Assembly (NCBI GenBank): GCA_001782805.1
Contig: MFPT01000002.1
Location: 133,401-197,400, forward strand
DNA: 64,000 bases
From: Candidatus Magasanikbacteria bacterium RIFCSPHIGHO2_01_FULL_41_23
GTDB lineage: Bacteria; Patescibacteriota; Patescibacteriia; Magasanikbacterales; UBA922
Direction: 5' to 3'
Of the stretch, positions 4,788-63,017 are shown piece after piece. A program made the position numbers and the translations under genes. The notes under the pieces are model-generated. The model ran no database searches. It was not told the DNA's origin and saw nothing but the letters and a program-made list of their open reading frames with translations. Within the stretch, counting starts at the first letter, position 1. Each line of letters begins with the position of its first letter.

Positions 4788-4991
4788 AATTTTGGATATA
4801 AAATGGAAAATTGCCCTCGGGTGAGGGCATATACAAATATGGAAAAAGTATAGAGGAAAGTGGGGGAATGGTCAATAAAAAAACCGATACCAATTATACA
4901 AGTATCGATTTAAAACAAATTAAAATGTGTTTGCCCGCCCGTGTTGTCGACGCATGGGCGGACAAACACGGGCGGTTGGATGGTGTGCGCC

Positions 4992-5210
4992 TTACACTGA
5001 GCGCAGCTTCCTCCTGAAGTCAGGCTTAGGAAGAACCCTGACCTGAATCACGACATGCGCATCCCCTCTTGAGCAGGGAAACGCAGGCGTCCCCAGAATG
5101 AGAGACACTGCATGGTAAGCCTTGCCTTCCCAAACAAACGGTGGCATCTTCATGTAAGCCGACCCGTCGTGCTCGAACCACTCGCCGATTTTGAGATTTT
5201 CCACAGTCAC
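4992..5210 (-). CDS. hypothetical small protein (72 aa) inside a GC-rich island; alternatively this region is a structured ncRNA
   Basis: About 57% GC against an AT-rich background; GTG start preceded 8 nt upstream by AGGGAGAA; no recognisable domain. Confidence 0.25.
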   Translation of the reverse strand: MTVENLKIGEWFEHDGSAYMKMPPFVWEGKAYHAVSLILGTPAFPCSRGDAHVVIQVRVLPKPDFRRKLRSV

Positions 5211-5344
5211 TATTTCTGTTCTCCCTGCGGTAAAAACCGCATTGTTCTTTGGACAATATAATCATATTCCAGTGCATATTGCAAATAAATATGACTTTGG
5301 TTATGATACCAGTCTATACTTTTTATTTATTTAATTTAGTTTTT

Positions 5345-5797
5345 ATGAAGCACGTCAAAAACTACTCGGTCTTGGGCGCAACTGCTCTTTTATTTCTTGG
5401 CGCAGGTTGTGCCAACACGCCTGTCCAACCAGAAGCAAAACCAGTAAACGAAGCCGTACCGGTTTCGGCTCCAGCAGTATCCGTGGAAACAACTATCACA
5501 GCTCCAGCAACCAATGAACTTTCTCTTACCGGTGAAGCAAAAGGCAATATGCTTGTCCATCTTAGTTTTACCACTCCGGCTGAAATGGACAAAGATGTTC
5601 AAGGATTTAGACTGCTCATGGGTCGAGAAGAAAACCCAACACCCCAAACTGCCACCGATTGGTATGATCTTGGCTCAGCTCACCGAAGCAAAGATTGGAC
5701 TGTAAACGCGATCGGCTCGCGTCATTTCCGCGTTTGCACACTGATAAAAAATCAATGCCAAACATTTAGTAATAATCTGGAATTGGACGTTAAATAA
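5345..5797 (+). CDS. lipoprotein (hypothetical)
   Basis: Start chosen at MKHVKNYSVLGATALLFLGAGC, a signal peptide with an LGAGC lipobox; the six-frame ORF extends further upstream to 5249. Confidence 0.6.
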   Translation: MKHVKNYSVLGATALLFLGAGCANTPVQPEAKPVNEAVPVSAPAVSVETTITAPATNELSLTGEAKGNMLVHLSFTTPAEMDKDVQGFRLLMGREENPTPQTATDWYDLGSAHRSKDWTVNAIGSRHFRVCTLIKNQCQTFSNNLELDVK

Positions 5798-6437
5798 AAA
5801 ACTTAGGAAGCGGTTTTGTAATTTTAATTTGCCAAACCGCCTTTAACCGCGCCAACCATTCGCGCGGTTTTTCTATTCGCCAAGAATTATATTCGCGATA
5901 ATCCGCATTGACCGGCACCACATTCATCCCCATCGATTCGCATAAATATACTATCCGCGGCAAATGAAATGATTGTGACACGACAATCGCGTTTTTGATT
6001 CCATATAATCTGGTTTCGCGCCAACAACTTTCATAAGTTCTATACCCGTGCGGATCAATCATAATATCTTGAACCGCGACTCCATTGGCAATTACTAAAG
6101 AACGCATTGCGGATATTTCATCAGCACGAGAAGCGCCATCATCGCCGGTCAAAAATAATTTTTGCACTTTTTGTTGTTTATACAAATCAATACCAATCAG
6201 CACGCGATCATATTGCATGTCGCTCATTTCGGTTTTGGTTTTCATTCCTCCGCCAAAAATAATCGCAATAGTTGAGGTTGGCGCTTGCGCTAATTTAAAA
6301 ATTCGCGACGAATTATTTAAAATTATAAAATTCGCCAATAACAAAAAAAATAATCCAATGGCAAACGAAATCATCGACGACCAACCAATTAATTTTAATT
6401 TTTTAGAAAATATCATTTTAATTATACTATCTTCCAA
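5790..6437 (-). CDS. SanA/YdcF (DUF218) family membrane protein
   Basis: N-terminal TM helix followed by a DUF218-like core (IIFGGG ... LFLTGDDGASRADE ... VVSQSFHLPR). Confidence 0.6.
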   Translation of the reverse strand: MEDSIIKMIFSKKLKLIGWSSMISFAIGLFFLLLANFIILNNSSRIFKLAQAPTSTIAIIFGGGMKTKTEMSDMQYDRVLIGIDLYKQQKVQKLFLTGDDGASRADEISAMRSLVIANGVAVQDIMIDPHGYRTYESCWRETRLYGIKNAIVVSQSFHLPRIVYLCESMGMNVVPVNADYREYNSWRIEKPREWLARLKAVWQIKITKPLPKFFI

Positions 6438-6641
6438 TTAATAAAATAATCAAACCAAAATCAATCATTAAATTAAATTTAAAAAATACTGAATATTTAT
6501 TAGTATATATTGAGATACGATATTCGTAAACCTTTGAAAATTCCTCAAAACACAAATACTTTTTTATGTTTTTAGGAATTTGGCCAGAGAGGAAGCTGGC
6601 CAGAGGTGGGAGGAAGTGGCGAGGACAGAGGACAACGGCGG

Positions 6642-7091
6642 TTAGTCGGTGAAGCCGAAAAGCGAACGGCGGCGGAACTGTCCCTTCGCAGGGACACGCA
6701 CCAGACGACGCCAGTCAACATTGCCATCAAGGCAGAGCGCAGTGCCACTCCGCACCGAGCCAAGCCCGATGATCGGATCTCGCCGCTGTTCTTCGGGACA
6801 CTGGATCCCGATTGCCAGCGTGTGACTCGCCCGCATGAGCTTCTTTCCGGAGGTTTCTTCCCAGACCATGATTCCCTCGCTGGAGGGATCTTGGTCAAAC
6901 CTCACAAGATGAACATCCGCGGATTCGCGCAAGAACATCTGTTCGGGAGCAAACAAGCTCCCAATGTCAAACGTAACCTCGTTGTAGTTGCCGAGACGGA
7001 TCGCCTCGGCAATTCCCATCATGGTATAGGGCCGAAGACATATCGTCTTCACGACCGTACCAACCAGCGGCGCCATATTTGGCGATCGCAT
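6642..7091 (-). CDS. hypothetical protein in a GC-rich island; weak resemblance to the dCTP deaminase/dUTPase fold (RLGN motif)
   Basis: About 58% GC; the start codon is preceded by GGGAGGTGAT; AIRLGNYNEVTF resembles the Dcd VDVRLGN strand; otherwise unassigned. Confidence 0.4.
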   Translation of the reverse strand: MRSPNMAPLVGTVVKTICLRPYTMMGIAEAIRLGNYNEVTFDIGSLFAPEQMFLRESADVHLVRFDQDPSSEGIMVWEETSGKKLMRASHTLAIGIQCPEEQRRDPIIGLGSVRSGTALCLDGNVDWRRLVRVPAKGQFRRRSLFGFTD

Positions 7092-7252
7092 ATCACCTCC
7101 CAATGTACGAGTTTTTGTTGGTTGTTAAGTCAGAATTTCTCCCGACTGTTTTCTGCGCTTCATTACTTTAATAAAGAGAAAAAACAGTGGAGAAAAATAA
7201 AATATAGAAAAAACTGATTAAAAAAATTTATACCATAAAACTACGACGTTTG

Positions 7253-9325
7253 TCAAGACGTACGTGCCTTAAGTTCCCGAATCTCATCACGTAAAATCGT
7301 CGCTAATTCAAATTCCAAATCTTGCGCCGCCTGTTTCATTTGCGCTTCTTTATCCTTGATAATAACTTTTATCGGTCGCGCATCGCCAATAATATCCAAA
7401 TCAGTCACACCAACGCCCGCTGATTTTTTCTTAATTTTTTTACCTCGCTCTGAAACATTTTCCGCAGAAATTCCAAACTCCTCCAAAATATTGCGAATAC
7501 TTTTGGCAATGGTTTTGGGAGTTATATTATGTTTTTTATTGTACGCCAATTGTTTGTCACGCCGACGCGCGGTTTCGGCCAGCGCGCGCTCAATGGATCC
7601 GGTCAGATGATCGGCATACATCACGACCAAACCATTCACATTACGCGCGGCCCGGCCAATGGTTTGAATCAAACTCGTAACACTCCGCAAAAAACCTTCT
7701 TTATCCGCGTCCAAAATCGCGACAAAAGAAACTTCAGGAATATCCAAGCCTTCGCGCAATAAATTCACGCCCACAATCACATCAATCTCCCCACGACGTA
7801 ATTTAGTAATAATATCAATGCGATTAATCGTAAGTACATCACTGTGTAAATATTCCACTTTAATTTTTTTCTTCACTAAAAATTCCGTCAAATCCTCGGC
7901 CATTTTTTTGGTAAGTGTGGTTACGAGCGTTCGCTCTTTTTTTGCTATTCTTTCTTGAATTCGGAGTATAACGTCGTCTACTTGCGACAATGAATCTTTG
8001 CTCGCAGTGACTGGCCGAATTAAAACTTGCGGATCAACCAAACCAGTCGGACGCACAATTTGTTCCGCGATATTTTGCGCAGTAGTCAATTCATATTCCG
8101 CTGGCGTAGCCGAAACATAAATCACTTGTTCGGTGCGAGTGGCAAATTCTTCATATTTTAGTGGCCGATTGTCGCGTGCACTCGGTAAACGAAAACCATG
8201 TTCCACCAAAGTATCTTTGCGCGCTCTATCCCCATTATACATTCCGCGAATTTGCGAAACTGTAACATGTGATTCATCAATCACGGTTAAAAAATTATTT
8301 TTCCCTTCGCTTACTTTTTCCTTGTTTTCATTTTCCTTCCCACCCGCATATTTAAAATAATCCAATAATGTAAATGGTGGTTCATCGGCCACGCGTCCAT
8401 CAAAATGTCGTGAATAATTTTCAATCCCGTTGCAATAGCCGATATTTTTTATCATTTCCAAATCATATTTTACGCGCCGTTTTAATCTTTCATATTCCAA
8501 AACTTTTCCTTTTTTGGTAAAATTTTGCAATTGTTCTTCCAACTCTTGTTCAATATTCCCAAACGCGCGTTCGCGCATTTCCGGAGTGGCCACATAATGT
8601 TTGGCCGGAAATAACCAAATATCTTCTTGCGCGCGGATGATTTGTCGCGTCACCGCTTCCACTTTTTCAATTGCAATAATATGACTGCCGATTTCCAAGC
8701 GATAAATCACTTCTTCATTTACGGGCATCAGTTCCAAAACTTGTCCGCGCAACCGAAATGTTCCGCGCGTCAAATCCGTATTGGTGCGCGTAAACTGCAT
8801 GGCGATTAATTGTTGCAACACGGCCGTCCGATCAAGCTTATCACCCACGCGCAAATGCAAAACAATTTTTTCATATTCCGTAGGCGAACCCAAACCATAA
8901 ATCGCGGACACTGATGCCACAATAATTACATCGCGCCGCGTCAACAGAGCTTGTGTGCAAGCATGACGCAGACGATCAATTTCTTCATTAATCTGCGCTT
9001 CTTTTTCAATATACGTATCTGATCCGGGCATATATGCCTCGGGCTGATAATAATCATAATAACTGACAAAATATTCCACCGCGTTGTCGGGAAAAAACTC
9101 GCGAAATTCATTGCACAATTGCGCGGCCAAAGTTTTGTTGTGCGCGATTACCAGCGTGGGCAATTGTGTTTGCGCGATCACATTCGCGATCGTAAAGGTT
9201 TTTCCCGAGCCGGTCACGCCCAACAAAACTTGTTTACGTAAATTTTTTTCTATACCGGAAACTAAACTCGCAATCGCTTGCGGCTGGTCGCCGGCGGGTT
9301 TGTAGGATGAAACGAGTTTGAACAT
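7253..9325 (-). CDS. uvrB: excinuclease ABC subunit B
   Basis: 690 aa; helicase motifs GVTGSGKT and DESH; C-terminal UVR domain (ILRDEIRELKAR). Confidence 0.95.
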   Translation of the reverse strand: MFKLVSSYKPAGDQPQAIASLVSGIEKNLRKQVLLGVTGSGKTFTIANVIAQTQLPTLVIAHNKTLAAQLCNEFREFFPDNAVEYFVSYYDYYQPEAYMPGSDTYIEKEAQINEEIDRLRHACTQALLTRRDVIIVASVSAIYGLGSPTEYEKIVLHLRVGDKLDRTAVLQQLIAMQFTRTNTDLTRGTFRLRGQVLELMPVNEEVIYRLEIGSHIIAIEKVEAVTRQIIRAQEDIWLFPAKHYVATPEMRERAFGNIEQELEEQLQNFTKKGKVLEYERLKRRVKYDLEMIKNIGYCNGIENYSRHFDGRVADEPPFTLLDYFKYAGGKENENKEKVSEGKNNFLTVIDESHVTVSQIRGMYNGDRARKDTLVEHGFRLPSARDNRPLKYEEFATRTEQVIYVSATPAEYELTTAQNIAEQIVRPTGLVDPQVLIRPVTASKDSLSQVDDVILRIQERIAKKERTLVTTLTKKMAEDLTEFLVKKKIKVEYLHSDVLTINRIDIITKLRRGEIDVIVGVNLLREGLDIPEVSFVAILDADKEGFLRSVTSLIQTIGRAARNVNGLVVMYADHLTGSIERALAETARRRDKQLAYNKKHNITPKTIAKSIRNILEEFGISAENVSERGKKIKKKSAGVGVTDLDIIGDARPIKVIIKDKEAQMKQAAQDLEFELATILRDEIRELKARTS

Positions 9326-9444
9326 ATTAACTTTTTTTGAGGATAATCTCCTTAAATAGGTATTTTTAAGTGAATATGATCCCCTATTTACGAGATTATG
9401 TCAAAATTTTGTAATAGCCTAACACAAAACAAGAAAATGAAATT

Positions 9445-9520
9445 CAAAAACTTAAACTAAAAAAATAAATAAACTGAAGTGCCAAACTTAAATTTATGAC
9501 CTCGCCGCGGGACGGAACCC
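9445..9520. repeat. 76-bp perfect direct repeat, copy 1 (pairs with 12081-12157)
   Basis: Identical string aaaaacttaaactaaaaaaataaataaactgaagtgccaaacttaaatttatgacctcgccgcgggacggaaccc at both positions; weaker similarity continues about 50 bp further. Confidence 0.9.
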
Positions 9521-10552: not shown

Positions 10553-10559
10553 AAAGAAG

Positions 10560-11969: not shown

Positions 11970-12080
11970 ATATGTGCTGTATGCTTAAAATATCAATTTA
12001 AGGATACCAGACTTATACTGTATTGTAAATAGCCAAAAAATGCTTTAATTTAGCTATTTTTACCAGATATTTTGAAAATA

Positions 12081-12157
12081 CAAAAAACTTAAACTAAAAA
12101 AATAAATAAACTGAAGTGCCAAACTTAAATTTATGACCTCGCCGCGGGACGGAACCC
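12081..12157. repeat. direct repeat, copy 2 (pairs with 9445-9520)
   Basis: Identical to copy 1 apart from one extra A in the leading A-run. Confidence 0.9.
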
Positions 12158-12494: not shown

Positions 12495-13868
12495 CTATAT
12501 TTCCACCGTCTCCCCAAACTCCGGCACAAACGTCTCAATCTGATACATATCGCGCAAACGATGCGCCAATTCCGTGGCCGCGTGCGGCTCGCCATGCGTA
12601 CAAAAAACTTTTTTGGGAATTCCTGCTTGCCCTGAGCTTGTCGAATGGGCCGAACCAACCCACTCCACTAATTTTTTCTGATCCGCATGCGCGGACAAAC
12701 CACCGATCGCCTTAACCGTGCAACGCACGGCAATTTCCGCGCCATGAATTTTTACATGACTGGCACCTTCATATAATCGCCGTCCTAAAGTCCCTTGTGC
12801 CTGATATCCCACAATAATTAAGGTGGATTTGGGATCGGACAAATAGCGTTGCGCGTGATGCAAAATCCGGCCACCATTCATCATACCTGCGCCCGCGATC
12901 ACCATTTTGGACCCACGAACAGAATTGATTGTTTTTGATTCATCGCGCGTGCGTGTAATTTTCAATTGCGGAAAATTTAAAAAGTCATCGCCCAACATAA
13001 CTTCTTTGGCCGCTTCCGCATCGTAGTATTCGCGATGACGTTTAAACACTTCGGTCGCTTCAATCGCCAATGGGCTATCCAAAAAAACGGGAATCAGCGG
13101 CAAGCTATGTTCATGTTCTTGCAATTTGTGCAATTCAAATAAAAATTCTTGCGTCCGTTCAATGGAGAACGCCGGAACCATAATGGTTCCACCACGTTTG
13201 ACCGCTTCGGCAATTAAGCGCGCAATAATTTCCGTACGCGTTTCTTTATCTTCGTGCACACGATCGCCATAAGTTGATTCAATCACGAGTGCGTCCAGAG
13301 GCGATAAATTTTCCGTATCTTTTAAAATCGGAACATTCACATTCCCCACATCACCGGAAAACGCGATCCGTTTGCCTTCGGCCGAAATTTCAATAAAAGC
13401 CGCGCCGAAAATATGTCCGGAATCGCGAAAAATAGCATTAACTCCCCCATCCAAATCCACAACTTCGTGATAATTCACACCATGAAATAATGCCGCGGTT
13501 TTGATAACATCTTCTTGACTGTATAAAACCGGCTTATTGAATTTACGTTCATCGTACGACATCACGCTCCACGCATCGTCCATTACCAAACGCGCCAATT
13601 CCAATGTCCCTTCAGTTCCATAAATTTTCCCAGCAAAACCTTCTTTAACCAATTTGGGCAAACGGCCAACATGATCCAAATGCGCGTGCGTGACTAAAAC
13701 CGCGTCAATTTTCTGTGGATCAAACGGAAACGCGTCATGATTTTTTTTCTCATTAAAATCCGATCCCTGAAACATGCCGCAATCAACCAAAATTTTCTGA
13801 TTGCCGACTGAAAGCAAATAACATGATCCGGTCACTTCATGACTCGCGCCGCAAAATTTTATTTCCAT
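12495..13868 (-). CDS. beta-CASP family metallo-beta-lactamase-fold ribonuclease (RNase J/CPSF-like)
   Basis: HAHLDH metal-binding motif, MBL fold followed by a beta-CASP region, 457 aa. Confidence 0.75.
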   Translation of the reverse strand: MEIKFCGASHEVTGSCYLLSVGNQKILVDCGMFQGSDFNEKKNHDAFPFDPQKIDAVLVTHAHLDHVGRLPKLVKEGFAGKIYGTEGTLELARLVMDDAWSVMSYDERKFNKPVLYSQEDVIKTAALFHGVNYHEVVDLDGGVNAIFRDSGHIFGAAFIEISAEGKRIAFSGDVGNVNVPILKDTENLSPLDALVIESTYGDRVHEDKETRTEIIARLIAEAVKRGGTIMVPAFSIERTQEFLFELHKLQEHEHSLPLIPVFLDSPLAIEATEVFKRHREYYDAEAAKEVMLGDDFLNFPQLKITRTRDESKTINSVRGSKMVIAGAGMMNGGRILHHAQRYLSDPKSTLIIVGYQAQGTLGRRLYEGASHVKIHGAEIAVRCTVKAIGGLSAHADQKKLVEWVGSAHSTSSGQAGIPKKVFCTHGEPHAATELAHRLRDMYQIETFVPEFGETVEI

Positions 13869-13924
13869 ATTTTGAGGTTATTTTTTAATTAAAACTAGTA
13901 TATACAAATTCGACCAAAGATGCT

Positions 13925-14647
13925 ATGCTGTCACCAACTATGATCCGACGTCCCGCTGATATTACTATTGAAGAACCGCCCATTGAAAAGCTGACCAGAC
14001 AACATTCCTGCCTTCGCCGCAGTTGTTTTTCTTGTCTGTCTTTTTTGCTGATAATTCTGGGAATTTCCTTATTGATTCTAAAATTTACCTTAAACGCGCA
14101 AACCAAAGAACTAAAAAAAATCCCCGCGGAAATAAGTCGGGCTGTGCCCGTCTATGATCCGGATAATATTGAATCCATCAGCCTAACTGCGGGCAGTGAA
14201 CGGAGTCGCGGTGTGGAAATGGCCGCATTTTTGCCCAAACTGATGGTGGCGCCGATTATCTTAACATTGGATCGCGGGAATAATATTATTAAAACCTATC
14301 GACCCGATGTCGTCAATCAAATTTCGGAAAAAACATCGTGGTTTGATAAATTCTTGATTTTAATTAAAACCAATGTGGCTGATCATCGGGATGAAATTCG
14401 TTTGGAATGGAAAAAATTACCGACTGACGCGAAATTTATTCAGGAATATTATGATACTGAATTAAAAAAACAAGGATTTATAATTACGAGTCACAGTGAC
14501 ACTGAACATATCCGCCAATTCACTTTTTCCAAAAACGGCATTGAAGGCAGTGTCTATACCGAAGATAATCCCACAACTCCGGAAACTGACACGGTTATTC
14601 TAACCATTACCATGACCGCGACCTCAACCCAAAACTATGTCAATTAA
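13925..14647 (+). CDS. hypothetical membrane-anchored protein
   Basis: One N-terminal TM helix (CLSFLLIILGISLLILKF); overlaps corA by 11 nt. Confidence 0.45.
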   Translation: MLSPTMIRRPADITIEEPPIEKLTRQHSCLRRSCFSCLSFLLIILGISLLILKFTLNAQTKELKKIPAEISRAVPVYDPDNIESISLTAGSERSRGVEMAAFLPKLMVAPIILTLDRGNNIIKTYRPDVVNQISEKTSWFDKFLILIKTNVADHRDEIRLEWKKLPTDAKFIQEYYDTELKKQGFIITSHSDTEHIRQFTFSKNGIEGSVYTEDNPTTPETDTVILTITMTATSTQNYVN

Positions 14648-15584: not shown

Positions 15585-17174
15585 GTGATCAAAAAAATTT
15601 TTTCAACTCAATCGCATACCATTACGGGCGCGGCCATTATTTTGGGCGGAGCGTCTTTTTTAAGCAGATTAATTGGATTGTTGCGCGACCGATTATTTGC
15701 GCATTATTTTGGCGCGGGCGATATTCTTGATGCGTATTATGCCGCATTTAGAATTCCGGATTTTTTGTTTAATATTTTGTTGGCCGGAGCAATAACGGCC
15801 GGATTCATTCCTATTTTTTGGGAATTATGGCAAAAAAATAAAAATGACGCGTGGCGATTAACGAATAACATTCTAATACTAACCGGAGTTCTTATGGCCT
15901 TGGGTAGTATGGTCGCGTTTATCTGCGCGCCACAATTAACAAAAATGTTGACTCCCGGATTTAGCGCGGAAAAATTGGCATTGACAACTCAGCTTACGCG
16001 CATAATGCTTTTGTCGCCAATTCTTTTGGGATTGAGCGGAGTGATTTCCAGTGTCTTGCATTCGTTTCGACAATTTGTCGCTTTTTCTTTGGCTCCGCTT
16101 ATCTATAATAGCGCGATTATCCTTGGCACTATTTTTTTAGTGCCAATTCTGGGACCAATTGGTTTGGCTTGGGGAGTAGTAATGGGAGCTCTTTTACATT
16201 TATTAATTCAATTGCCCGCGGCCATTAGCCAAGGATATTATTTTCACTGGATATTTAATTTAAAAGATTCGGCAACACGATCAGTCATAAAATTGGTAAT
16301 TCCCCGCACATTGGCAATGGTCGCATTACAAACTAATTTTTTAGTTTTGACGATCATGGCTTCCACTCTTGCCATTGGCAGTATTGCTGTTTTTAATCTC
16401 GCGCAAAATTTATACTATGTTCCTATCGGATTAATCGGGCAATCATTTGCTTTGGCCGCTTTTCCGATTTTTGCCAAAGCAGTGGTGGAAAAAAATGATG
16501 ACGAATTAGTCCGTCATTTTGGCAATGTAGTGCGACAAATATTGTTCTTGATAATCCCTGGAACAATTCTTCTTATATTGTTTCGGGCGCAAATTGTACG
16601 TGTGGTTTTGGGTTCAGGAAAATTTAATTGGACTGACACCATTTTGACATCTGACACGCTGGCGCTTCTTGCGATTTCCTTAACCGCGCATTGTATTATG
16701 CTTATTACGGCCCGGGCTTTGTACGCCTATAAAGATGCGTGGTCAACCGTATGGGCCGGATTGATTGGTGTGGCAATCACAGTATTCTTGAGTATTTTTT
16801 TAAAAAATTATTGGGGAATACGCGGTTTAGGTTTAGCATTATCCGCCTCAATTATTATTCAAACCGCTCTCTTATGGGTTGTATTACGCCGACGAGTAAA
16901 TAATCTGGAAGAAGGTAAAATTATGACTGCTCTCGCAAAAATTTCTTTGGGAAGTGTGGTCTTGGGAATAGTAGCGCAAATAACCAAGTATGGTGTGGCC
17001 GGTGTCGTGGATATGACCCGATGGTGGGGCATCTTGAGTCAAGGCTTAATTTGTGGTACTGTAGGAATTCTCGCCTATGGTTTTGTTTGCCATATTCTAA
17101 AGCTGGAAGAAATGGAATTGTTCAAAGAAAGTTTTAAAAAACGCTGGCTTAAGATTTGGCATGTTACCGAGTAA
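15585..17174 (+). CDS. murJ: lipid II flippase MurJ/MviN
   Basis: 529-aa polytopic protein; N-terminus LSRLIGLLRDRLFAHYFGAGDILDAYYAAFRIPDFLFN is typical of MurJ. Confidence 0.85.
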   Translation: MIKKIFSTQSHTITGAAIILGGASFLSRLIGLLRDRLFAHYFGAGDILDAYYAAFRIPDFLFNILLAGAITAGFIPIFWELWQKNKNDAWRLTNNILILTGVLMALGSMVAFICAPQLTKMLTPGFSAEKLALTTQLTRIMLLSPILLGLSGVISSVLHSFRQFVAFSLAPLIYNSAIILGTIFLVPILGPIGLAWGVVMGALLHLLIQLPAAISQGYYFHWIFNLKDSATRSVIKLVIPRTLAMVALQTNFLVLTIMASTLAIGSIAVFNLAQNLYYVPIGLIGQSFALAAFPIFAKAVVEKNDDELVRHFGNVVRQILFLIIPGTILLILFRAQIVRVVLGSGKFNWTDTILTSDTLALLAISLTAHCIMLITARALYAYKDAWSTVWAGLIGVAITVFLSIFLKNYWGIRGLGLALSASIIIQTALLWVVLRRRVNNLEEGKIMTALAKISLGSVVLGIVAQITKYGVAGVVDMTRWWGILSQGLICGTVGILAYGFVCHILKLEEMELFKESFKKRWLKIWHVTE

Positions 17175-17182
17175 AAAATTAA

Positions 17183-23380: not shown

Positions 23381-23505
23381 AGTGAAAATAAGATGATAGA
23401 ATCATACCATATCATTGACAAATGAGTACAATTTGTATAGATTAGGACTGATTCTTCGCATGGTGCGAGGGATTAATTTGAACATCAGACAAGAGGAGCG
23501 GTGAG

Positions 23506-25278
23506 ATGGAATCTCAAAAAATAACACCAGCTTCTTGGCTGGATGTGTGTGGCAAAAACTGGTATATCTTCAGGGAGTTCCTGAAGATAAGTGGCTACGA
23601 TCCCAGCATGGTCGAGGCCATCATTCAACTAGTTTTGGAAGATCCGGACACAGAGGTGTTGGAGAAAAGCCGTCTTGAAAAAGAGTGGCTCACTCTCCAA
23701 CAATACCAGCTGGTAGAAAATGCGGTCGTCGAAACGACCGGTCATGTTCACCATTTGTTCGAGGCTGGACGATTTTCACACCAAATCCAGTTTGGTGGAT
23801 CGATCGCCTTGGACAAACTGAACCGTTTCTTTTTTCGGCACATCACCGAACCGGGAACCGGTTTTGGGTTCGTACCCAGCGCCACCGAAGGATTCAACGA
23901 AAACAAAACGTTCGAATTCGTGGTGACAGAGCGTGGTCACATGATTATCCGGCTGAAATATTTGCCGGGGCCAAACGGTATCATGAGAAACGCGACCGAG
24001 GACTATCGGTCAGCGATCTATTATATCCCAGGAATTTTCCGGGGTGTCGTAGACACATGGTACAGGAACGAAGAAACAGCCGGAGAGGTGAAGCTCCTGA
24101 GTGTTGACGTTCCTCCGCAAGTGATCATCGCGCGAGAGGCAGAGGAGGCAGGTGTTGACATGATTGTTGACGCCATTGACGAAAGTCAGCCTTATCTGTG
24201 TATCAATGGGATTGTCTATGGCCTCATCGTGGAACACGGTGAGAAAAAAGCAATTCTCATTACTCGCGACGTGGAAACGCCCTGTCGGATCCACGGCACT
24301 CTTCACCCGATTCTTAGGAAAGGTGAAATCTATCGCTGGAAAGAGCCGATCGAAACCGAGTATGACATTCGGTGGAGAAAAAATCGGCTGTTCACACTGT
24401 TCAGTCGAAGTCGGTTTGGCTCAAGTAAGGCGATTAAAGCAGGCTTGTCTGCCGAAGCGAGGATGGCTGACGCAGAAGCACGCCTCGCTGTCGTGAATGC
24501 AAATTCACGGGTGGCGCTGGCAGAATCTGCAGTTTCCGAAGCCAAACTCGAAGCTGCGCAAGCGAGAGCAGAAGCTGCGCAAGCGCGAGCCGATGTCGAA
24601 GCGGCCGGGAAGCGAAAGCTCCGTGCCATCTTCGAACGAGCAGCTCCGAGTCTGGGCGTGGCCGACGCTCTTCTTTCCGGCACTTTCCGTCCCATCAACC
24701 TGAAATCCGTGATTATTCAGTGCGATGTGGTAGGATTTAAGCGACTGTCTCAGTCTTGGGGACCGGTTCAGACAAACCAACGCATGACGCGAATGTTTGA
24801 GCTGATAGAATCCATTGCGCGAAAAAAGGGGTTCTTCCCTTTCAAGCGCATCGGCGACGCCCTCATCATCGCGTACGCTGAGTGGCCGCGGAGAAGCAAT
24901 GAGGCTTCGCCGTACCAGTCATTCGGGGAAGCCGAAGACATGGCGATGGTTCTCACTAAGGAGTTCCACAGATTGGCCAAGGAAGAATTGGCAATCATGT
25001 TCCGAATCGGTGTTGACCTTGGTGAGGTGCTCTGGTGCAACCAGACTACTGACCCAGAGGAAGTCCGGTTCGATGCAACTGGGAATCCTTTAACTGGGGC
25101 TGCGCGAGCTGAAGCCGCGGCAGAACCAGGAAGAACTTCGGTCACTGAGAACTTTGCCAGGTCTCGAGAATTGCGACTTGGTCCAGAAATGAAAAATTCT
25201 GGATTGAGAAGTCGTGGTAGGATTCGAGACAAAAACGGAGATCCTCTGGATGTCCGTGACGTCATCGAGGATAACTAA
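23506..25278 (+). CDS. class III nucleotidyl (adenylate/guanylate) cyclase with an unknown 390-aa N-terminal domain and a coiled-coil linker
   Basis: The C-terminal 190 aa carry CYCc motifs: IQCDVVGFKRLS (metal Asp), KRIGDALIIAY (second Asp), RIGVDLGEVLW, FDATGNPLTGAARAE; preceded by the ARMADAEARLA...AQARAEAAQARADVEAAGKRK coiled coil; gene is about 53% GC. Confidence 0.8.
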   Translation: MESQKITPASWLDVCGKNWYIFREFLKISGYDPSMVEAIIQLVLEDPDTEVLEKSRLEKEWLTLQQYQLVENAVVETTGHVHHLFEAGRFSHQIQFGGSIALDKLNRFFFRHITEPGTGFGFVPSATEGFNENKTFEFVVTERGHMIIRLKYLPGPNGIMRNATEDYRSAIYYIPGIFRGVVDTWYRNEETAGEVKLLSVDVPPQVIIAREAEEAGVDMIVDAIDESQPYLCINGIVYGLIVEHGEKKAILITRDVETPCRIHGTLHPILRKGEIYRWKEPIETEYDIRWRKNRLFTLFSRSRFGSSKAIKAGLSAEARMADAEARLAVVNANSRVALAESAVSEAKLEAAQARAEAAQARADVEAAGKRKLRAIFERAAPSLGVADALLSGTFRPINLKSVIIQCDVVGFKRLSQSWGPVQTNQRMTRMFELIESIARKKGFFPFKRIGDALIIAYAEWPRRSNEASPYQSFGEAEDMAMVLTKEFHRLAKEELAIMFRIGVDLGEVLWCNQTTDPEEVRFDATGNPLTGAARAEAAAEPGRTSVTENFARSRELRLGPEMKNSGLRSRGRIRDKNGDPLDVRDVIEDN

Positions 25279-25423
25279 CCCACCAAGGAGGATCCGGCGC
25301 TGTATTCCCACCCACAGCGCCGCCAATCCCTTAACTTTATAACTCGGTTGTAAAATTAAGAGAAAAAAAATCCACCTCGACAAGCTCGGTGTAAACCCTG
25401 AGCTAAGTCAAGAGTGGATTTTT

Positions 25424-26529: not shown

Positions 26530-27408
26530 TTATTTGTTTAATTTTTTCTGCCCATTTGCCGACAAAAAATTATTATTACTGATGATTGATTTTCCGGTTT
26601 TGCTTTCTAATAATTTCCTGGCACTCTTGGCCACGCCGCCGCCTTTTTTGGCGGCTCGGGCGTTTGGCATATAGCCTTCGGCTTTTTCAGCGTCAGCAAT
26701 TTGATTGGTAGAGAGCTCGGCGAGTGCGGTAAAAATTAATTCAGCCTCAGTCATGTGATCACGCAAATTTTCTCGTTTCAATTTTTTCAGATTTTTATGT
26801 TTGCGCGTGGTCATGCCAGTCCACTCGGAGTGAATCACGTCCGTGAGTTTCGCATATTCAATATCTTCTTTCAAGCCATGCGTTCCCCAATAATCCGTTA
26901 ATTTATTGCGCACTTCTTGCCCGCGCATGCGCTGTTCAATCCATTTTTCTGAATAACCCAACGCTTGCCAATTTTTTCGTGCGCGATTTAAGGAGCGCTC
27001 GGGGTCAACGGTTTCCTGCAAGCGTTCATAACCAACTTTGGCGAGCCAGAGTTTGAAGGGTTCGGCTTTTGGAGAAGGGATTGACTGGATGATGCGGAGA
27101 GCAGTTTCAACATCACTTACATCAGTTTCACGTTTCTTCCCATCCTGAGCCAACAATTTCAACTGGTGACATTTTGTCACCGATTCATTTCCCTCTTTTC
27201 CTAGTCGTTCCTTAAGTTTATTCCAATATTTTCGGGCTGTCTGAAAATCAGGTTGTTCGGTCAATACCCGAACAATATCAACAATACTAAAATACCATTT
27301 TTCCTCTTGCTCGCTCCATATTCGACGCACTGATTGCTGTTCAAATAAGACAATAGATTTTTCGGGAGACAATGCCCCCTCCTTTTTCTTTGGCATGTTT
27401 TTAAGCAT
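26530..27408 (-). CDS. DNA-damage-inducible protein D-like protein (Bro-N domain)
   Basis: N-terminus IVLFEQQSVRRIWSEQEEKWYFSIVDIVRVL...WLAKVGYERLQE follows the DinD/Bro-N pattern; sits between dnaK and dnaJ. Confidence 0.5.
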   Translation of the reverse strand: MLKNMPKKKEGALSPEKSIVLFEQQSVRRIWSEQEEKWYFSIVDIVRVLTEQPDFQTARKYWNKLKERLGKEGNESVTKCHQLKLLAQDGKKRETDVSDVETALRIIQSIPSPKAEPFKLWLAKVGYERLQETVDPERSLNRARKNWQALGYSEKWIEQRMRGQEVRNKLTDYWGTHGLKEDIEYAKLTDVIHSEWTGMTTRKHKNLKKLKRENLRDHMTEAELIFTALAELSTNQIADAEKAEGYMPNARAAKKGGGVAKSARKLLESKTGKSIISNNNFLSANGQKKLNK

Positions 27409-36291: not shown

Positions 36292-36368
36292 GCCAAATGA
36301 ATTGACAAAACCAAGTTATTGCCGTATAAGTTCACTGTCCGGTCGGCCTCCTACGCAGGAGGTGACCA

Positions 36369-36737
36369 ATGAGAATACTTGTTGTGGATGACCAACCCGC
36401 GGTCAGAAAATTACTCGTCCGCTTCCTCGAAGGACGCGGGCATAGTGTGACAACTGCCAGCAACGGCAATGAAGGATTCGCCGCTGACCAGACCACGATG
36501 GATCTGGTGATTACAGATCTGGAAATGCCGGAAATGTCCGGCGACCAGATGATCAATCAGCTCCACGAATCAGGCAAGGACATCCCGTTCATCTTGATGT
36601 CAGGGAATCATCAAGAGCTCGGGGTTCGTGGTTTGGCTCTCAAACAGTGGAACATTCGTGTTGCCACTATTCAGAAGCCGTTCTCTCCCAGCCTACTCGT
36701 CACCACGGTGGCCGACGAGTTCGGGTTGAAGATCTAA
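36369..36737 (+). CDS. single-domain response regulator (CheY-like receiver)
   Basis: DD pair (VVDDQP), phospho-acceptor Asp in LVITDLEMP, S/T in ILMSG, K in QKPF; AGGAGGTG Shine-Dalgarno 4 nt before the ATG; about 53% GC. Confidence 0.8.
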   Translation: MRILVVDDQPAVRKLLVRFLEGRGHSVTTASNGNEGFAADQTTMDLVITDLEMPEMSGDQMINQLHESGKDIPFILMSGNHQELGVRGLALKQWNIRVATIQKPFSPSLLVTTVADEFGLKI

Positions 36738-36821
36738 CTTGGAGGCCGATCGGACACCTCCACACAAACAAAAAATCTCTCCTTAAATATAGAGAGATTT
36801 TTTTATTAAAATTTGTTCCAA

Positions 36822-48911: not shown

Positions 48912-49190
48912 TTATTTTTTGTCTTTTTTTAAAACCTCTACTGATACATTTGTTGCGTCATCAGTTGTACCCTTAACAAATGCCTTGATCTTTACGGTGT
49001 CATCTGGACTTGAATCACCAGGAGTTGCCGCAGGTGCCGAGGGTAAAGGGACAGCTTTTGTTCGTGTATACCAACTTCGTGGTTTACTATTTTTTTGTGA
49101 TGTTGGTTGCGCGAGGATAATTATCCCAGCCAAGATAGAAATCCCTACCCATCCAATACCGATGGGAATAAGATATTTACTCATATACAC
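48912..49190 (-). CDS. small membrane-anchored protein (92 aa)
   Basis: One TM helix plus a Pro/Ser-rich tail. Confidence 0.35.
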   Translation of the reverse strand: MYMSKYLIPIGIGWVGISILAGIIILAQPTSQKNSKPRSWYTRTKAVPLPSAPAATPGDSSPDDTVKIKAFVKGTTDDATNVSVEVLKKDKK

Positions 49191-54297: not shown

Positions 54298-54304
54298 AAA
54301 ATAA

Positions 54305-58995: not shown

Positions 58996-59071
58996 TGTAG
59001 TCTAAGTATACAAGAAAAAATATATTTGGTAAATAAAATAGCGAATTAGTTAATCTGCAATATAACGGTAT

Positions 59072-59935: not shown

Positions 59936-60029
59936 ATTATTTTTCGTGGTATAAAAATGCAGGACATCATGAAGGACGTTGGAACTATTTTACAGGATGC
60001 AAAGGGTTATATCTATATTCCGAATTTCG

Positions 60030-60572
60030 TTATACTCGCACAATAAACGGCTCAAGGTCGATAAGATTTAAAAGACGCGATTCGCTCACATGTTTCATCA
60101 CACCATAACTTGGCTGATGAGAAAACCCGATATATTCAACCTTTTTCTCCAAGTGCGTTATTTTTTGTATTGCTGGTATAAGATCAGTATCTGAAGAAAC
60201 GACAATAGCAACGTCATACAGATTTTCATACGCTCCGATAAGCATATCCGTTGCTATTTGCACGTCAACACCTTTTTCATGAACCTTCTCACCAGCCACG
60301 CGCATAAGATATCCTTTTTTTACCACAATATTCTGTGCTTTAGATGACAGGTGGTTGAACAACCGGATCTGAGAAAACCGTAATTTTTGTGCATACTCAT
60401 CATCCAATTTGGCGCGGACAACTCCCACGTAGTAGGTAACACCGACTATCTCTCTTTTTTGAGCCACCAAATTAGCCATCCCACGATAATGAAAAGAGAG
60501 AAGATTTTTGATCTCCAAAGATTTCAACTTGAAATACAAGTTGCTCCCATCGATAAATATTGCAACACGCAT
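60030..60572 (-). CDS. NYN/LabA-like domain protein (predicted RNase)
   Basis: VAIFIDGSNLY ... VDVQIATD ... IVVSSDTDLIP, the NYN acidic-residue pattern. Confidence 0.65.
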   Translation of the reverse strand: MRVAIFIDGSNLYFKLKSLEIKNLLSFHYRGMANLVAQKREIVGVTYYVGVVRAKLDDEYAQKLRFSQIRLFNHLSSKAQNIVVKKGYLMRVAGEKVHEKGVDVQIATDMLIGAYENLYDVAIVVSSDTDLIPAIQKITHLEKKVEYIGFSHQPSYGVMKHVSESRLLNLIDLEPFIVRV

Positions 60573-60933
60573 ACAGGGTCAAAAAACAAAAACCCCACCG
60601 TGTCCCCTTTCGAGAAGCAGAGTGGGTGGTTTTAGTAAAGTCAGTATATCAAACATATCAGCGTTGTCAAATGGTGTATATTTGCGGTCGATAACATAAA
60701 ATATGGTATTTGTTTTTTCATCTGTCATTACACGGTGGCAGGCGCGGTCGGAATCGGACCGACGACGGAGGTTTTGGAGACCCCAGTGATACCATTTCAC
60801 CACGCGCCCATATTTTTTACCCTCCTCCAAAATATTTTGTGTAAACCAACGAAACTATAATACCCAAAAAATAAAAAAAAAACAAGCCTCAGTATCTTCC
60901 AAGGCCTGATAGAAAATCGCGAATAATTTATGG

Positions 60934-61773
60934 TTAATTTGGCGACTGAATGGTGGTAGATGGCGTTTCGGTTTTTTTATCATTGTCAAAACCGGAAACA
61001 ACCAAGTACATCAGAAGTAAAAACACCAATGTACTGATAAAACCAAAAGGCAATCCAAACCAAACCGCGGTCGTGGCAATTATGGTCGGCAAAGTTGTGG
61101 CATAAAAACCAGTCGCTAAAATTTCTTTATATGTCCACGCAAATTTCCGCACTCGCGCCACGATGTATACCACGCCCGTCAGGAATAAAAGCCCGATAAA
61201 TTTCCCGATAAGCAAAACAAAAACTCCAATCGCCAACAGTACGACACCAATCCAATGTCCATACGATCGAACTTTGGCGATTCCGTCTACAACATTGGCC
61301 TTGGTAAAGACCGTGTCATCAGGCAAACCCGCAAATGTTTCGGTTTGAGTGGTTTTATCTTCAGAATTATAAAAAGAAAAATAATCGCGCGTGATCAAAA
61401 TAATCGCGTCATGATCCGCATCTTTTTTTAGTGATTCAATTGATGGTGTTGAAGTACTTTCCGTATCAATCACTATCCGCACACTATCATCGCCAAATAA
61501 TTTATCCGCCACAAATGGCTGGGGGAAACCCGTAATTGCCAGTTTTTCATTCTTCCACGTAGCAGTGAAGTCGGGAGTATTTTTGACGATTTCAGTTTCA
61601 GCTGTTTCCAAAACTTTTGGAAGCGCAAAAAAAGCAAGTTGAATCAAACGTAAAGCAAAAATCAAAACCAAAAAAATAACCGCATAAGCGAATGCTCGAC
61701 CCAAACGGCCACGCTGTTCGCGAAGCCAAGCAACGTTAAACAAACTATTATAAAACGCGGTTAGAATCCACAT
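60934..61773 (-). CDS. hypothetical polytopic membrane protein
   Basis: Five or six TM helices with a central soluble loop. Confidence 0.45.
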   Translation of the reverse strand: MWILTAFYNSLFNVAWLREQRGRLGRAFAYAVIFLVLIFALRLIQLAFFALPKVLETAETEIVKNTPDFTATWKNEKLAITGFPQPFVADKLFGDDSVRIVIDTESTSTPSIESLKKDADHDAIILITRDYFSFYNSEDKTTQTETFAGLPDDTVFTKANVVDGIAKVRSYGHWIGVVLLAIGVFVLLIGKFIGLLFLTGVVYIVARVRKFAWTYKEILATGFYATTLPTIIATTAVWFGLPFGFISTLVFLLLMYLVVSGFDNDKKTETPSTTIQSPN

Positions 61774-61776
61774 AGC

Positions 61777-61932
61777 TTATTTGGTTTCTTTATGCAAAGC
61801 ATGCTTTCGGCAATTTTTGCAAAACTTCTGTAGTTCCAAGCGATTCTTGAGCGTCTTTTTATTTTTACTCGAAAAATAATTAATGGTTTTGCATTCCGTG
61901 CACTCAAATTTGATCATGTTGTCTTGAGACAT
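61777..61932 (-). CDS. rpmG: 50S ribosomal protein L33
   Basis: [51 protein letters not shown] matches the L33 ECTECK...NY...KNK...LEL.K.C..C.KH.LHKE.K pattern; the longer six-frame ORF (81 aa) is an upstream over-extension. Confidence 0.8.
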
Positions 61933-62028
61933 ATTTCTAAAATAAAAACTAAAATTGAAATTGCAATCTCTACCACTAACTGCAATAGTGAATATGATAC
62001 CAAGTAGTCTGGAAAAAATCAAGAGGGA

Positions 62029-62547
62029 ATGCTACGATACATGTCTATGCGTACCACTAATCGAAAATCGGATAAATTTACCGGGCAAAAACAAGACCCG
62101 TTGATAACTGCCGAAAAAATCAAAGAACTCACGGAAAAATTGGCCGGAATGAAAACTAAAAGACCAATTCTTGCGGCTGAAGTGGGAAGATTGGCGGAAT
62201 TGGGCGATTTTTCGGAAAATGTGGAATACCAATTGGCCAAAGGAAAATTGCGCGGATTAAATAACGCGATTCTGGTTTTGGAAAATCAATTGACGCGAGC
62301 CGAAGTAATCATGACACCAAGCCAGACTGATCGTGTGGAAATTGGTCACAGCGTGACCGTTGAATGTAATAATAAACGCCAACAATATCACATTCTGGGA
62401 TCAACCGAAACCGATCCGAACCATGACGTCATTTCTTATAATTCCCCGATTGGCGCGGCATTGATTGGACACCGAGTGGGTGAAAAATTACTCGTTGTGA
62501 TCGCGAATAAAAAAGAAATGGAATATACGATTATTGAGATAAAATAA
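62029..62547 (+). CDS. greA: transcription elongation factor GreA
   Basis: N-terminal coiled coil; C-terminal [26 protein letters not shown]-like domain; the true start may be an internal Met. Confidence 0.85.
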
Positions 62548-62657
62548 AAACAAAAAAAACACCATGCATATGATGTTTTTTTGTGGGAGCCGATCAGGAA
62601 AGATCGGCGGCTGGTGGGTAGAAAGAGCGACCGATAGCAGACAGCACCGAGTTGGTG

Positions 62658-63017
62658 CTACTCATCAAAGAGGTCATTGAACAAACCTTCTTTGAAAATT
62701 TCCTGTGTTTCGGGCAAGGCGAGGATTTGTTCCATCCCCATGATGTAGCCGCATTCTTTGGCGGCTTCGATGACATCAGGAGAACTCCGGTTGATCCGGT
62801 ACCTCGTTTTGTGTTCATGACTCGGCACGAGGGTGAGTCCACCTCTTTTGAAGGCTTGGTCAACGAACCAAAAAGCGTTGAGCTCAGGGAGTTCATGGAA
62901 TCCCGGAACGGCCTTGATCATGCCGAAGGTAATCCAATTGGCTTTCCAGTGAGCCTTCACCACCAAAGTAAGAGCCGCGAGATATTTCTCCGTGAATGTT
63001 TGTGGTCTATCTGACAT
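62658..63017 (-). CDS. hypothetical protein (119 aa) in a GC-rich island
   Basis: About 54% GC; start MSDRPQTF chosen 6 nt after AAGGAGTGGAAGG; the six-frame ORF continues upstream to 63113. Confidence 0.4.
   Translation of the reverse strand: MSDRPQTFTEKYLAALTLVVKAHWKANWITFGMIKAVPGFHELPELNAFWFVDQAFKRGGLTLVPSHEHKTRYRINRSSPDVIEAAKECGYIMGMEQILALPETQEIFKEGLFNDLFDE

Follow-up and report, generated by a model that had tools for sequence, protein, structure and literature searches.

GC-rich, Shine–Dalgarno-led accessory genes in the AT-rich chromosome of a Magasanikbacterium: recent arrivals or maintained residents?

Why would an AT-rich bacterial chromosome keep scattered genes that are rich in G and C, and do such genes mark a recent arrival or something that the cell maintains? 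The question is raised by a stretch of 64,000 nucleotides (nt) from Candidatus Magasanikbacteria bacterium RIFCSPHIGHO2_01_FULL_41_23 (contig MFPT01000002.1, positions 133,401 to 197,400; hereafter the window, the whole of the DNA that was analyzed). A preliminary description made from the letters had picked out five GC-rich islands, here I1 to I5 (4920-5250, 6575-7100, 23470-25300, 36330-36740, and 62560-63060), each with a single gene and a strong ribosome-binding site, and had suggested repeated acquisition from a high-GC donor or a dispersed signaling module. Our preferred reading, whose chances we would put at about even, is that the islands are an old, possibly foreign accessory gene class of the Magasanikbacteria, the composition of which is held by selection through Shine–Dalgarno (SD)-dependent, structure-rich expression. 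The features of the islands are collected in Table 1.

The window has a GC content of 41.1%, and I1 to I5 have 53.5, 57.6, 51.7, 53.3, and 49.1%, respectively. Five GC-rich gene units in an AT-rich contig are thus borne out, both by GC content and by the third codon positions (GC3) of each gene, though the 53-58% first given for them fits I1, I2, and I4 and is slightly too high for I3 and I5. I5 is the weakest island, with z = 1.9 and 3.7% of same-length windows being equally GC-rich. From I1 to I5, GC3 is 0.63, 0.65, 0.54, 0.63, and 0.575, as against 0.372 ± 0.050 (maximum 0.474) in 50 other window genes, and the first and second positions (GC1, GC2) are also richer in the island genes. In two-fold codons, C/(C+T) is 0.53-0.64 in the islands versus 0.20 ± 0.08 in the backbone, and G/(A+G) is 0.26-0.70 versus 0.18 ± 0.08. 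The backbone ends its codons in T or A at ~80-87% for Phe, Tyr, Asn, Asp, Lys, and Glu and at 68-74% for His, Gln, and Ile; in the islands these families are switched (TTC 0.70, GAC 0.61, ATC 0.58, AAG 0.46). Tetranucleotide distances from the background reach z = 2.7-6.1 across the five islands, and their deviations intercorrelate (r = 0.55-0.82, versus 0.00 ± 0.17 for random pairs). By codon usage, GC3, and tetranucleotides, the island genes are distinct from their neighbors.

Backbone codon usage is itself split, with four-fold families ending in G or C at ~50% (up to 68%) and two-fold families ending in A or T at ~80%; at a sister Magasanikbacterium locus (L092), four-fold sites are 27-43% GC and the two-fold bias is as in the window. 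Two candidate causes of the island composition were tried and rejected. Translational selection for C-ending codons does not fit, as the highly expressed backbone genes for DnaK and LepA remain at 0.18-0.20, and adenine mutagenesis of the kind driven by diversity-generating retroelements does not fit a sense strand with A > T.

A contrast of this kind should first be examined for mis-joined reads. The idea that the islands are assembly chimeras, stitched in from a GC-rich organism, has nothing in its favor except the compositional contrast itself. Probes of 301 nt over all ten island borders found identical matches in one to five independent assemblies per border, made from differing samples with differing assemblers, and the island genes are present in 16-33 contig sets of up to 198 kb (ENA, JGI, Logan, and ANAN16 assemblies). 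The window proteins are annotated in three Rifle-aquifer metagenome-assembled genomes of Candidatus Magasanikbacteria, and sister species show the same architecture. With all ten borders recurring unchanged, the islands are not assembly artifacts; chimeric assembly is excluded for practical purposes, and we give it next to no credence.

The second contrast lies in translation initiation. SD strength was taken as the best duplex with the anti-SD within 20 nt of the start, with 45 backbone genes for comparison. The five islands range from -7.7 to -11.6 kcal/mol, whereas the backbone genes average -0.8 with a minimum of -6.3, so that the five sites first quoted are all present and are exceptional for this genome. 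A motif scan found an SD core at the true start of the five island genes and of only one other open reading frame (ORF), which is AT-rich and encodes a membrane protein; the Bro-N gene has a core at an alternative TTG start. Backbone leaders are AT-rich and SD-less (e.g., at the starts 29938, 26521, and 19701), and the organism appears to start translation largely without an SD. In an out-of-sample test on the 10 kb past the window start, all three GC-rich genes carry a strong SD and none of the nine backbone genes does, which brings the total for window and flank to 8/8 GC-rich versus 1/56 backbone genes (Fisher p = 2e-9). GC-rich genes of sister genomes are SD-led too, and the L092 backbone is SD-less except for its PemK toxin gene.

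The AT-rich ORF just mentioned (48912-49184, minus strand) has 90 amino acids (aa) and a predicted membrane segment; a perfect GAGAGGAGGTG site stands 3 nt ahead of the ATG, with a TGTATAAT box upstream. A strong SD on an ORF that is not GC-rich suggests that the ribosome is able to use SDs. Extension past the window end did not reach the 3' end of the 16S ribosomal RNA (rRNA) gene, the assemblies breaking ~180 nt after the DUF378 gene (63584-63808). On the other side, 2-6 kb past the window start, the flanking contig (L165) holds an overlapping GC-rich, SD-led pair of 175 and 74 aa at 13385-14123 (-) and a 109-aa gene at 16623-16952 (-). One gene per island is therefore a rule that stands inside the window, where annotation pipelines do not call the I1 ORF, and that is broken outside it by a two-gene GC-rich cassette; islands are not always single genes.

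Table 1. Predicted and annotated features of the five islands and of the receiver cassettes of related loci
Island	Feature	Coordinates	Strand	Details
I1	Promoter-like site TTGCAA-18-TATATT	5255..5284	-	consensus scan, 9/12 matches; predicted
I1	Shine–Dalgarno AGGGAGAA	5219..5226	-	8 nt before GTG; -8.0 kcal/mol, stronger than in all 45 host genes
I1	Putative ORF, 72 aa, GTG start, no known family	4992..5210	-	GC1/2/3 0.575/0.41/0.63, island-like
I1	GC-rich 3' hairpin, 17-bp stem, then T-rich tract	4927..4975	-	inverted-repeat scan
I2	Shine–Dalgarno GGGAGGTG	7094..7101	-	-11.5 kcal/mol
I2	ORF, 149-aa orphan, hyper-structured mRNA	6642..7091	-	GC 0.569, GC3 0.653; annotated hypothetical A2821_00690
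I2	3' untranslated CCUCCCA, predicted pairing with SD region (5'-3' closure)	6607..6613	-	whole-unit minimum-free-energy and centroid folds, z = -4.7
I3	Promoter-like site TTGACA-17-TAGATT, in AT-rich DNA	23415..23443	+	10/12 consensus; predicted
I3	Shine–Dalgarno AGGAG	23494..23498	+	7 nt before ATG; -8.2 kcal/mol
I3	Gene, 590 aa: ~330-aa N-terminal domain of no known family, Ala/Glu-rich helix, class III nucleotidyl cyclase domain	23506..25278	+	
I3	3' hairpin GGCGCTGT-N10-ACAGCGCC with CCAATCCC tail	25296..25330	+	
I4	Promoter-like site TTGACA-17-TATAAG	36302..36330	+	read from sequence; predicted
I4	5' arm of bracketing inverted repeat, TGTCCGGTCGGCCTCC	36336..36351	+	5 nt after -10 box; contains anti-SD CCUCC
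I4	Shine–Dalgarno AGGAGGTG	36357..36364	+	-11.6 kcal/mol
I4	Gene, 122-aa stand-alone CheY-like receiver	36369..36737	+	annotated A2821_00820
I4	3' arm of bracketing inverted repeat, GGAGGCCGATCGGACA	36741..36756	+	pairs with 5' arm
I4	AT-rich bidirectional terminator, common to I4 and metK	36770..36803	.	just outside island
I5	Promoter-like site TTGACG-17-TACATT (with TG)	63070..63098	-	predicted
I5	Shine–Dalgarno AAGGAGTGGAAGG	63018..63030	-	-7.7 kcal/mol; upstream CTCCTTA 63057-63063 able to pair
I5	Gene, 119 aa	62658..63017	-	GC 0.486, GC3 0.575
I5	3' hairpin GCCGATC-N6-GATCGGC	62589..62608	-	read from sequence
I4 and relatives	Receiver-cassette inverted repeats	L014 4857-4870/5417-5430; L021 2095-2106/2776-2787		window 16 nt; L014 14 nt, perfect; L021 12 nt

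Seen as units, the islands share a plan. Six units were compared for this, namely I3, I4, I5, and three from sister genomes. Their GC-rich block extends from just past the -10 box to the 3' hairpin and so coincides with the predicted transcript; GC is 0.17-0.42 in the 60 nt of the promoter, 0.45-0.67 in the 5' untranslated region (UTR), 0.55-0.67 in the 3' UTR, and 0.22-0.38 in the next 60 nt. Promoter-like sites and 3' hairpins are found at all five islands, with several -10 boxes imperfect and 3' hairpins without T tails, and anti-SD tracts lie upstream of the SD in I4 and I5. We would describe the unit as an AT-rich host-type promoter, usually with a perfect TTGACA, followed from the predicted start by a GC-rich transcribed block that would comprise a canonical SD, one ORF (at times two), and a GC-rich 3' hairpin or arm. 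Such units, present in several Magasanikbacteria, sit between conserved AT-rich, SD-less backbone genes, often opposed to them in direction. Their products are mostly regulators or proteins of no known function; the regulators include a class III cyclase, a receiver of the CheY type, and a domain associated with sigma factors.

For comparison, HrcA-centered loci were drawn from GTDB species representatives, and 17 related loci with 381 ORFs were surveyed; genome and metagenome scans with HrcA yielded no relative above ~50% identity, nor the genome of the window itself. The conserved backbone in these relatives is metK-bacA-cca...yidC-band7-hrcA-grpE-dnaK-dnaJ-[variable]-rnhA-recJ, and GC-rich single-gene patches occur in their intergenic slots as well. 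Outliers for two-fold codons ending in S (G or C) number 24 of the 381 ORFs, and 75% of the GC-rich outliers are without a homolog in the other loci, versus 25% of ordinary ORFs; the island genes are accessory. The same-slot comparison covers I3 and I4, and in both cases the equivalent slot of sister genomes is occupied by a gene of like kind. Antiparallel orientation to both neighbors is seen in 10/15 GC-rich ORFs versus 14/332 others in a raw count that includes mis-stranded ORFs and orthologs, and in ~7/13 after curation, these cases being not all independent (I3, I4, I5, the L092 cyclase, the L014 and L021 receivers, and an L011 gene).

The case for persistence begins with I3. Pfam confirms the two signaling domains that had been recognized by eye, the class III cyclase and the stand-alone receiver; in I3 it places PF00211 at residues 403-553 (E = 5e-11, 42.9 bits versus a cut-off of 21.9), and the PycC profile of PADLOC matches with E = 1e-8. 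The protein has one relative only, P0034 (45% identical), which occupies the same acyltransferase-cyclase-dnaJ slot in L092, the closest sister available. Both proteins conserve DVVGF and GDALI, which we take to be the two metal-binding Asp motifs of cyclases, and a site with Asn in the sister is Thr in I3. No relative of I3 was found in IMG/VR or by a PDB sequence search, and an AlphaFold model from the two-sequence alignment is unusable (predicted local distance difference test, pLDDT, 35).

Between I3 and L092, the flanking proteins are 63-91% identical and the cyclase 45-48%. Conserved residues of the flanks have the same base at 0.30-0.41 of four-fold sites, and their two-fold sites retain an excess identity of 0.19. 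The L092 cyclase nevertheless has a GC of 0.54 and a GC3 of 0.587 versus 0.21-0.35 in its neighbors, and conserved two-fold residues are S-ending at 0.55 (window) and 0.70 (L092) in the cyclase versus 0.17-0.18 in the flanks. A TTGACA box lies at the equivalent spot in L092, a 5'-UTR hairpin is common to both loci, and the L092 3' hairpin, GGCGGTGT...ACACCGCC, differs by a compensatory C-G to G-C change, its CCCACCC loop and CCAATCCC tail being unchanged. On this comparison, the cyclase cassette is to be read as one ancestral unit that has been GC-rich in both lineages since their split.

Three further observations belong beside the cyclase. The I3 coding sequence contains a perfect 8-bp hairpin, TATCTTCAGGGAGTTCCTGAAGATA, at 23565-23589 (+). 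Another GC-rich gene lies next to the acyltransferase gene at L092 6773-7399, and a second orthologous GC-rich, SD-led pair adjoins dnaJ in two other Magasanikbacteria (L013 15469-16266 and L012 6331-7155), with a weak SPOR-domain match in one.

The receiver of I4 (PF00072, E = 9e-20, 71.3 bits versus a cut-off of 30.2) has by eye a full pocket, with DD, the acceptor Asp (LVITD), S (LMSGN), and K (QKPF) all there. Its promoter is not flagged by the scanner because the second hexamer ends in G. The arms of its inverted repeat have just two copies in the window, with 0.17 expected by chance, and pair in the minimum-free-energy and centroid folds of both strands, so that a 16-bp helix joins the first and last nucleotides of the unit. 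GC-rich receivers of 53% GC (L014) and 62% GC (L021) stand in the same BacA-MetK slot of two more distant species, head-to-head with bacA, in loci of 39% and 44% GC overall; synonymous sites are saturated here, the flanks having only 0.06 excess identity with those of the window. In all three receiver cassettes, an inverted repeat brackets the unit, with a 5' arm that starts ~5 nt past the -10 box; between species the repeat varies in sequence but keeps its pairing.

Orthology of the receivers is inferred from slot, orientation, domain, and architecture, since the L014 and L021 proteins are just 24% identical to I4. In the L014 receiver, the acceptor Asp is lost. In a further species (L030), the metK-bacA slot holds a non-homologous 299-aa gene with a weaker inverted repeat (4611-4637/5576-5602). 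In other species, too, the repeats of the metK-bacA cassettes begin at the predicted transcription start, as in I4, and do so with ends that resemble TGTC or GTCC. A reading of the I4 repeat as transposon ends was rejected, there being no target duplication and no other copies in the window, and the arms being species-specific with their pairing kept. The persistence argument is stronger for the receivers than for the cyclase; the cyclase at least, and very probably the receiver, are old, vertically inherited residents.

The third contrast is one of messenger RNA (mRNA) folding, for which two controls were used: a dinucleotide shuffle on 300-nt tiles, and a synonymous-codon permutation, global or local, that preserves protein and codon usage and, in the local version, regional GC3 as well. 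Under the shuffle, 153 backbone tiles give z = -0.32 ± 1.0, I2 -4.8, and I4 -2.8 (-5.1 for the whole I4 unit), and the successive tiles of I3 give -5.5, -6.8, -2.8, -1.1, and -2.9. Synonymous permutation gives -7.9 (I3), -4.2 (I2), and -3.1 (I4) globally and -7.4, -3.6, and -3.7 locally, compared with -0.54 ± 1.18 (minimum -2.9) in 50 backbone genes. Sister genes behave alike under this control: -6.8 for the L092 cyclase, -4.75 for an L014 methyltransferase, -3.9 for the L021 receiver, and -3.6 for the L030 299-aa gene. Native genes from loci of 45-66% GC have z = -0.81 ± 1.3, and receiver homologs of GC-rich genomes -0.4 to +0.9; excess folding is not generic to GC-rich genes. By strand, the first 700 nt of I3 have z = -11.3 sense and -7.0 antisense, the sense strand of I2 is the more stable, and the strands of I4 are equal. 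Short perfect hairpins are 3-8x above expectation in I2, I3, and I4.

Strong folding invites the thought that some islands, chiefly I1 and I2, are structured non-coding RNAs, with ORFs that are by-products of a low stop-codon frequency. Structured RNAs usually stand out from an AT-rich genome by their GC-richness, and I2 looks the part in several respects. It has neither a homolog nor a confident fold: a search of 5.8 billion protein clusters returned only I2 itself, the three short matches in IMG/VR span 28 residues and are not significant, so that I2 has no relatives there, and an AlphaFold model from the single sequence is unusable (pLDDT 40). It carries long ORFs in three frames, and its folding excess is alike on both strands. 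For I1, the exact protein is missing from a 15-billion protein collection, and the pipelines, passing over its ORF, call an 83-aa ORF in another frame. Against this, both ORFs, when read in the proposed frame, rank GC3 > GC1 > GC2, as do the proven protein genes I3 and I4, and both have correctly spaced SDs in a genome that is nearly SD-less otherwise; Rfam gives nothing credible over 4800-7300 even at E<=1 (and only transfer RNAs, tRNAs, at gathering score in the window as a whole), and I1 has no excess structure in dinucleotide or synonymous shuffles. We consider non-coding RNA quite improbable as an explanation, while the coding status of I1 is uncertain.

I5, like I1 and I2, has no match in Pfam, NCBIfam, PHROGs, or PADLOC. 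A phmmer search of 1.84 billion representatives found two real, remote relatives, one of which (P0036) is a fusion with an extracytoplasmic function (ECF) sigma factor, and the other (P0037) has its gene directly behind one for an ECF sigma factor; a regulatory domain associated with sigma factors is thus the probable identity of I5. It has no PDB sequence match, no relatives in IMG/VR, and no excess RNA structure in synonymous shuffles. It is the sole island beside tRNA genes, and a perfect TTGACA-17-TATAAT promoter lies at 63177-63205 (+) before the tRNA-Val/Thr/Thr cluster at 63234-63511 (+).

Could the islands nevertheless be single genes from one or more GC-rich, SD-using donors, not yet ameliorated, with the shared slots being insertion hot spots? 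Lawrence and Ochman are said to have provided, in 1997, the amelioration framework for compositionally atypical, horizontally acquired genes. Transfer would account by one cause for high GC at three codon positions and in UTRs, for an SD in an SD-less genome, and for GC-rich hairpins. It also suits the patchy presence among relatives, other accessory genes that are SD-led too (the L092 PemK toxin gene and the Bro-N region), the one slot that holds different genes by species (the L030 299-aa protein versus the receivers), and the place of I5 beside a tRNA cluster. Horizontal gene transfer in aquifer genomes is documented, mostly between Patescibacteria (PMC12455944), which also counts on this side.

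The donor, however, was not found. I2 matches only itself, I3 has one syntenic chromosomal relative in a sister, none of I2, I3, and I5 has relatives in IMG/VR, and the best match of I4 is 47% identical, followed by ~40% matches on contigs of 62-64% GC. A phage-like contig of 62% GC with small unannotated ORFs (L088, ERZ27253179 k141_2320708), encodes a stand-alone receiver ~40% identical to I4 and comes from the same project series as the ERZ27254845 contig of the window. The cyclase is orthologous across a near-saturated synonymous split and equally GC-rich in both lineages, and the native genes of GC-rich genomes are without excess mRNA folding. No integrases, transposases, flanking direct repeats, or target-site duplications were found at the island borders, and no common motifs were seen among them. 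The neighbors are uvrA/uvrB, the dnaJ/dnaK operon, bacA/metK, and greA/tRNA, a cellular backbone and not a prophage; nor does the window contain an integron integrase or cassette array, in a search that did not extend to attC covariance models, and the units carry their own promoter-like sites.

The islands thus deviate in composition as recent arrivals would, without an identifiable donor, an empty site in relatives (I3, I4), or hallmarks of mobility. With no donor-like homolog, a syntenic, equally GC-rich relative of I3, and receivers in the same slot of two species, the repeated recent acquisition from a high-GC donor first proposed is not supported. What does survive of foreign origin is that the units are compositionally alien, autonomous, accessory, and SD-led in an SD-less genome, and an ultimately foreign source is plausible because the backbone lacks SDs and the island genes have them. 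As a full account, unameliorated transfer seems to us rather unlikely. The dispersed signaling module fared no better: no kinase, cyclic nucleotide-binding protein, or effector was found in the window, and the five genes differ in their distribution across relatives.

A neutral regional process is a further candidate, either GC-biased gene conversion (gBGC) at recombination-prone accessory loci or altered mutagenesis at genes transcribed head-on to the backbone, including hairpin-creating template switching; no selection on RNA would be needed. It would explain the persistence and perhaps the orientation and the hairpins. The rise of GC at all codon positions and in UTRs is as regional bias predicts, and the strong antiparallel excess, the fast protein evolution, the retention of foldedness without that of pair positions, and the enrichment of short perfect hairpins in I2, I3, and I4 all agree with it. 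Such a process leaves unexplained, however, the SD on every GC-rich gene and the start of the block at the predicted transcription start; I1, I2, and the L030 gene do not run opposite to both of their neighbors; and the effect of bacterial gBGC on GC3, reportedly a few percent in the work of Lassalle et al. in 2015, compares with 20-30 points here. We regard a neutral origin as unlikely.

The preferred reading, an accessory class held GC-rich by selection, would work as follows. Island mRNAs would be expressed by a route distinct from that of the rest of the genome, with SD-dependent initiation, stably folded transcripts, 5'-3' closing helices, and pairing between SD and anti-SD; under selection for base pairing, G+C would stay high at every codon position and in the UTRs as well. 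The cyclase and, very probably, the receiver have evolved fast as proteins and have kept GC-richness and SD past lineage splits. Composition, SD contrast, excess folding, synteny, and persistence are thus shown, and the causal step from folding and SD dependence to maintained GC is one that we infer.

Several points weigh against this reading and should be kept in mind. It does not account for I1 and I5, which have no excess folding; together with three genes outside the window, they show little or none (z from +0.8 to -2.7), so folding cannot explain GC-richness in every case. Between the two cyclase orthologs, pairing profiles are uncorrelated (r = -0.03), meaning that overall foldedness is kept and no specific structure; a conserved structure in both mRNAs was looked for in this comparison and not found, and foldedness without conserved pairs could also arise by mutation, for example by template switching. 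Four-fold sites are ~50% G/C-ending in islands and backbone alike, and since the backbone is already at that level, some of the contrast may come from selection acting on the two-fold codons of backbone genes and not from anything peculiar to the islands. For the cyclase, the amelioration argument is suggestive and marginal, as passive amelioration with ~44% retention per lineage predicts an S-ending two-fold share (S2) of <=~0.54 even from an ancestor at 1.0. The low identity of the receivers given above counts here too, as does the fact that promoters, transcript ends, and expression are predictions. Finally, the anti-SD motif is detectable in just 48% of Parcubacteria 16S rRNAs (PMC9297842).

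How do the islands compare with what is already known? We found no earlier description of such a gene class in the literature. They resemble acquired genes and genomic islets in their atypical G+C, codon usage, and tetranucleotides, their accessory spread, and their position between conserved genes; they differ in that neither a donor nor homologs from outside were found, that their borders show no mobility genes or repeats, and that the signature outlasts near-saturation in a syntenic ortholog. They are also GC-richer than the genome, whereas bacterial orphans are usually AT-richer. Phage morons, as described by Hendrix and colleagues, are likewise single genes of odd composition between conserved genes, with a promoter and terminator of their own, which in the islands are predictions; the islands differ by their cellular chromosomal backbone and their conservation across species. 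The genome-scale ordered RNA structure of some RNA viruses, described by Simmonds and colleagues, is similar in its pervasive folding excess of coding sequence, kept without individual pairs; here we have DNA-encoded bacterial mRNAs of 0.4-1.8 kb, and the excess is confined to a subset of GC-rich genes.

SD-poor translation systems such as that of Bacteroidota, with a few SD-bearing, specially regulated genes, share the AT-rich SD-less leaders of nearly all genes and the few strong SDs; the difference is that the SD minority here is a GC-rich accessory class. Loss of the anti-SD is described for Parcubacteria (PMC9297842). Among signaling systems, I3 is like the class III cyclases, PycC of Pycsar included, by PF00211 and the PycC profile, and unlike them in its unassigned 330-aa N-terminal domain and in having no adjacent effector, the neighbors being acyltransferase and DnaJ genes in both species. 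I4 is like single-domain CheY-like regulators by its full pocket; no histidine kinase lies within the 64 kb, and the L014 counterpart is without the acceptor Asp.

Some other features of the window may be recorded. Beside uvrA, at 394-2135 (-), the gene for an Eco47II-type restriction enzyme and that for a cytosine methylase (with a MerR-like N-terminus) overlap. The Bro-N gene, of the phage antirepressor family, lies with a NUDIX gene inside the hrcA-grpE-dnaK-dnaJ cluster at 26530-27408 (-), a position taken in L092 by an 83-aa gene. GC skew tracks gene strand in the window, and replication direction therefore cannot be inferred from it.

Atypical composition is routinely taken as recent transfer; the signature seen here persists, in a syntenic ortholog, where synonymous sites are nearly saturated, and it comes with an SD in an SD-less genome and with excess folding, both of which composition-based methods ignore. 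If the genes are foreign instead, there would be an unsampled GC-rich gene pool touching the Magasanikbacteria and possibly their hosts. If selection maintains the signature, screens for horizontal transfer in candidate phyla radiation (CPR) genomes would over-call recent events, and CPR bacteria would own a distinct class of translational control for signaling genes. In its boldest form, which we consider doubtful, each cell would run two expression regimes, an SD-independent AT-rich core with unstructured leaders and a small, fast-evolving set of SD-dependent, structure-gated accessory regulators, with GC being a selected device (through stable folds, 5'-3' closing helices, and SD/anti-SD switches) and not a scar of transfer. 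In a still more extreme variant of this form, which has no direct support here, the genes would be kept in a foreign dialect for expression in, or tuning to, the GC-rich host cell of the epibiont. Were the preferred reading true, it would bear on how the ribosomes of reduced Parcubacteria, some without an anti-SD, choose their mRNAs.

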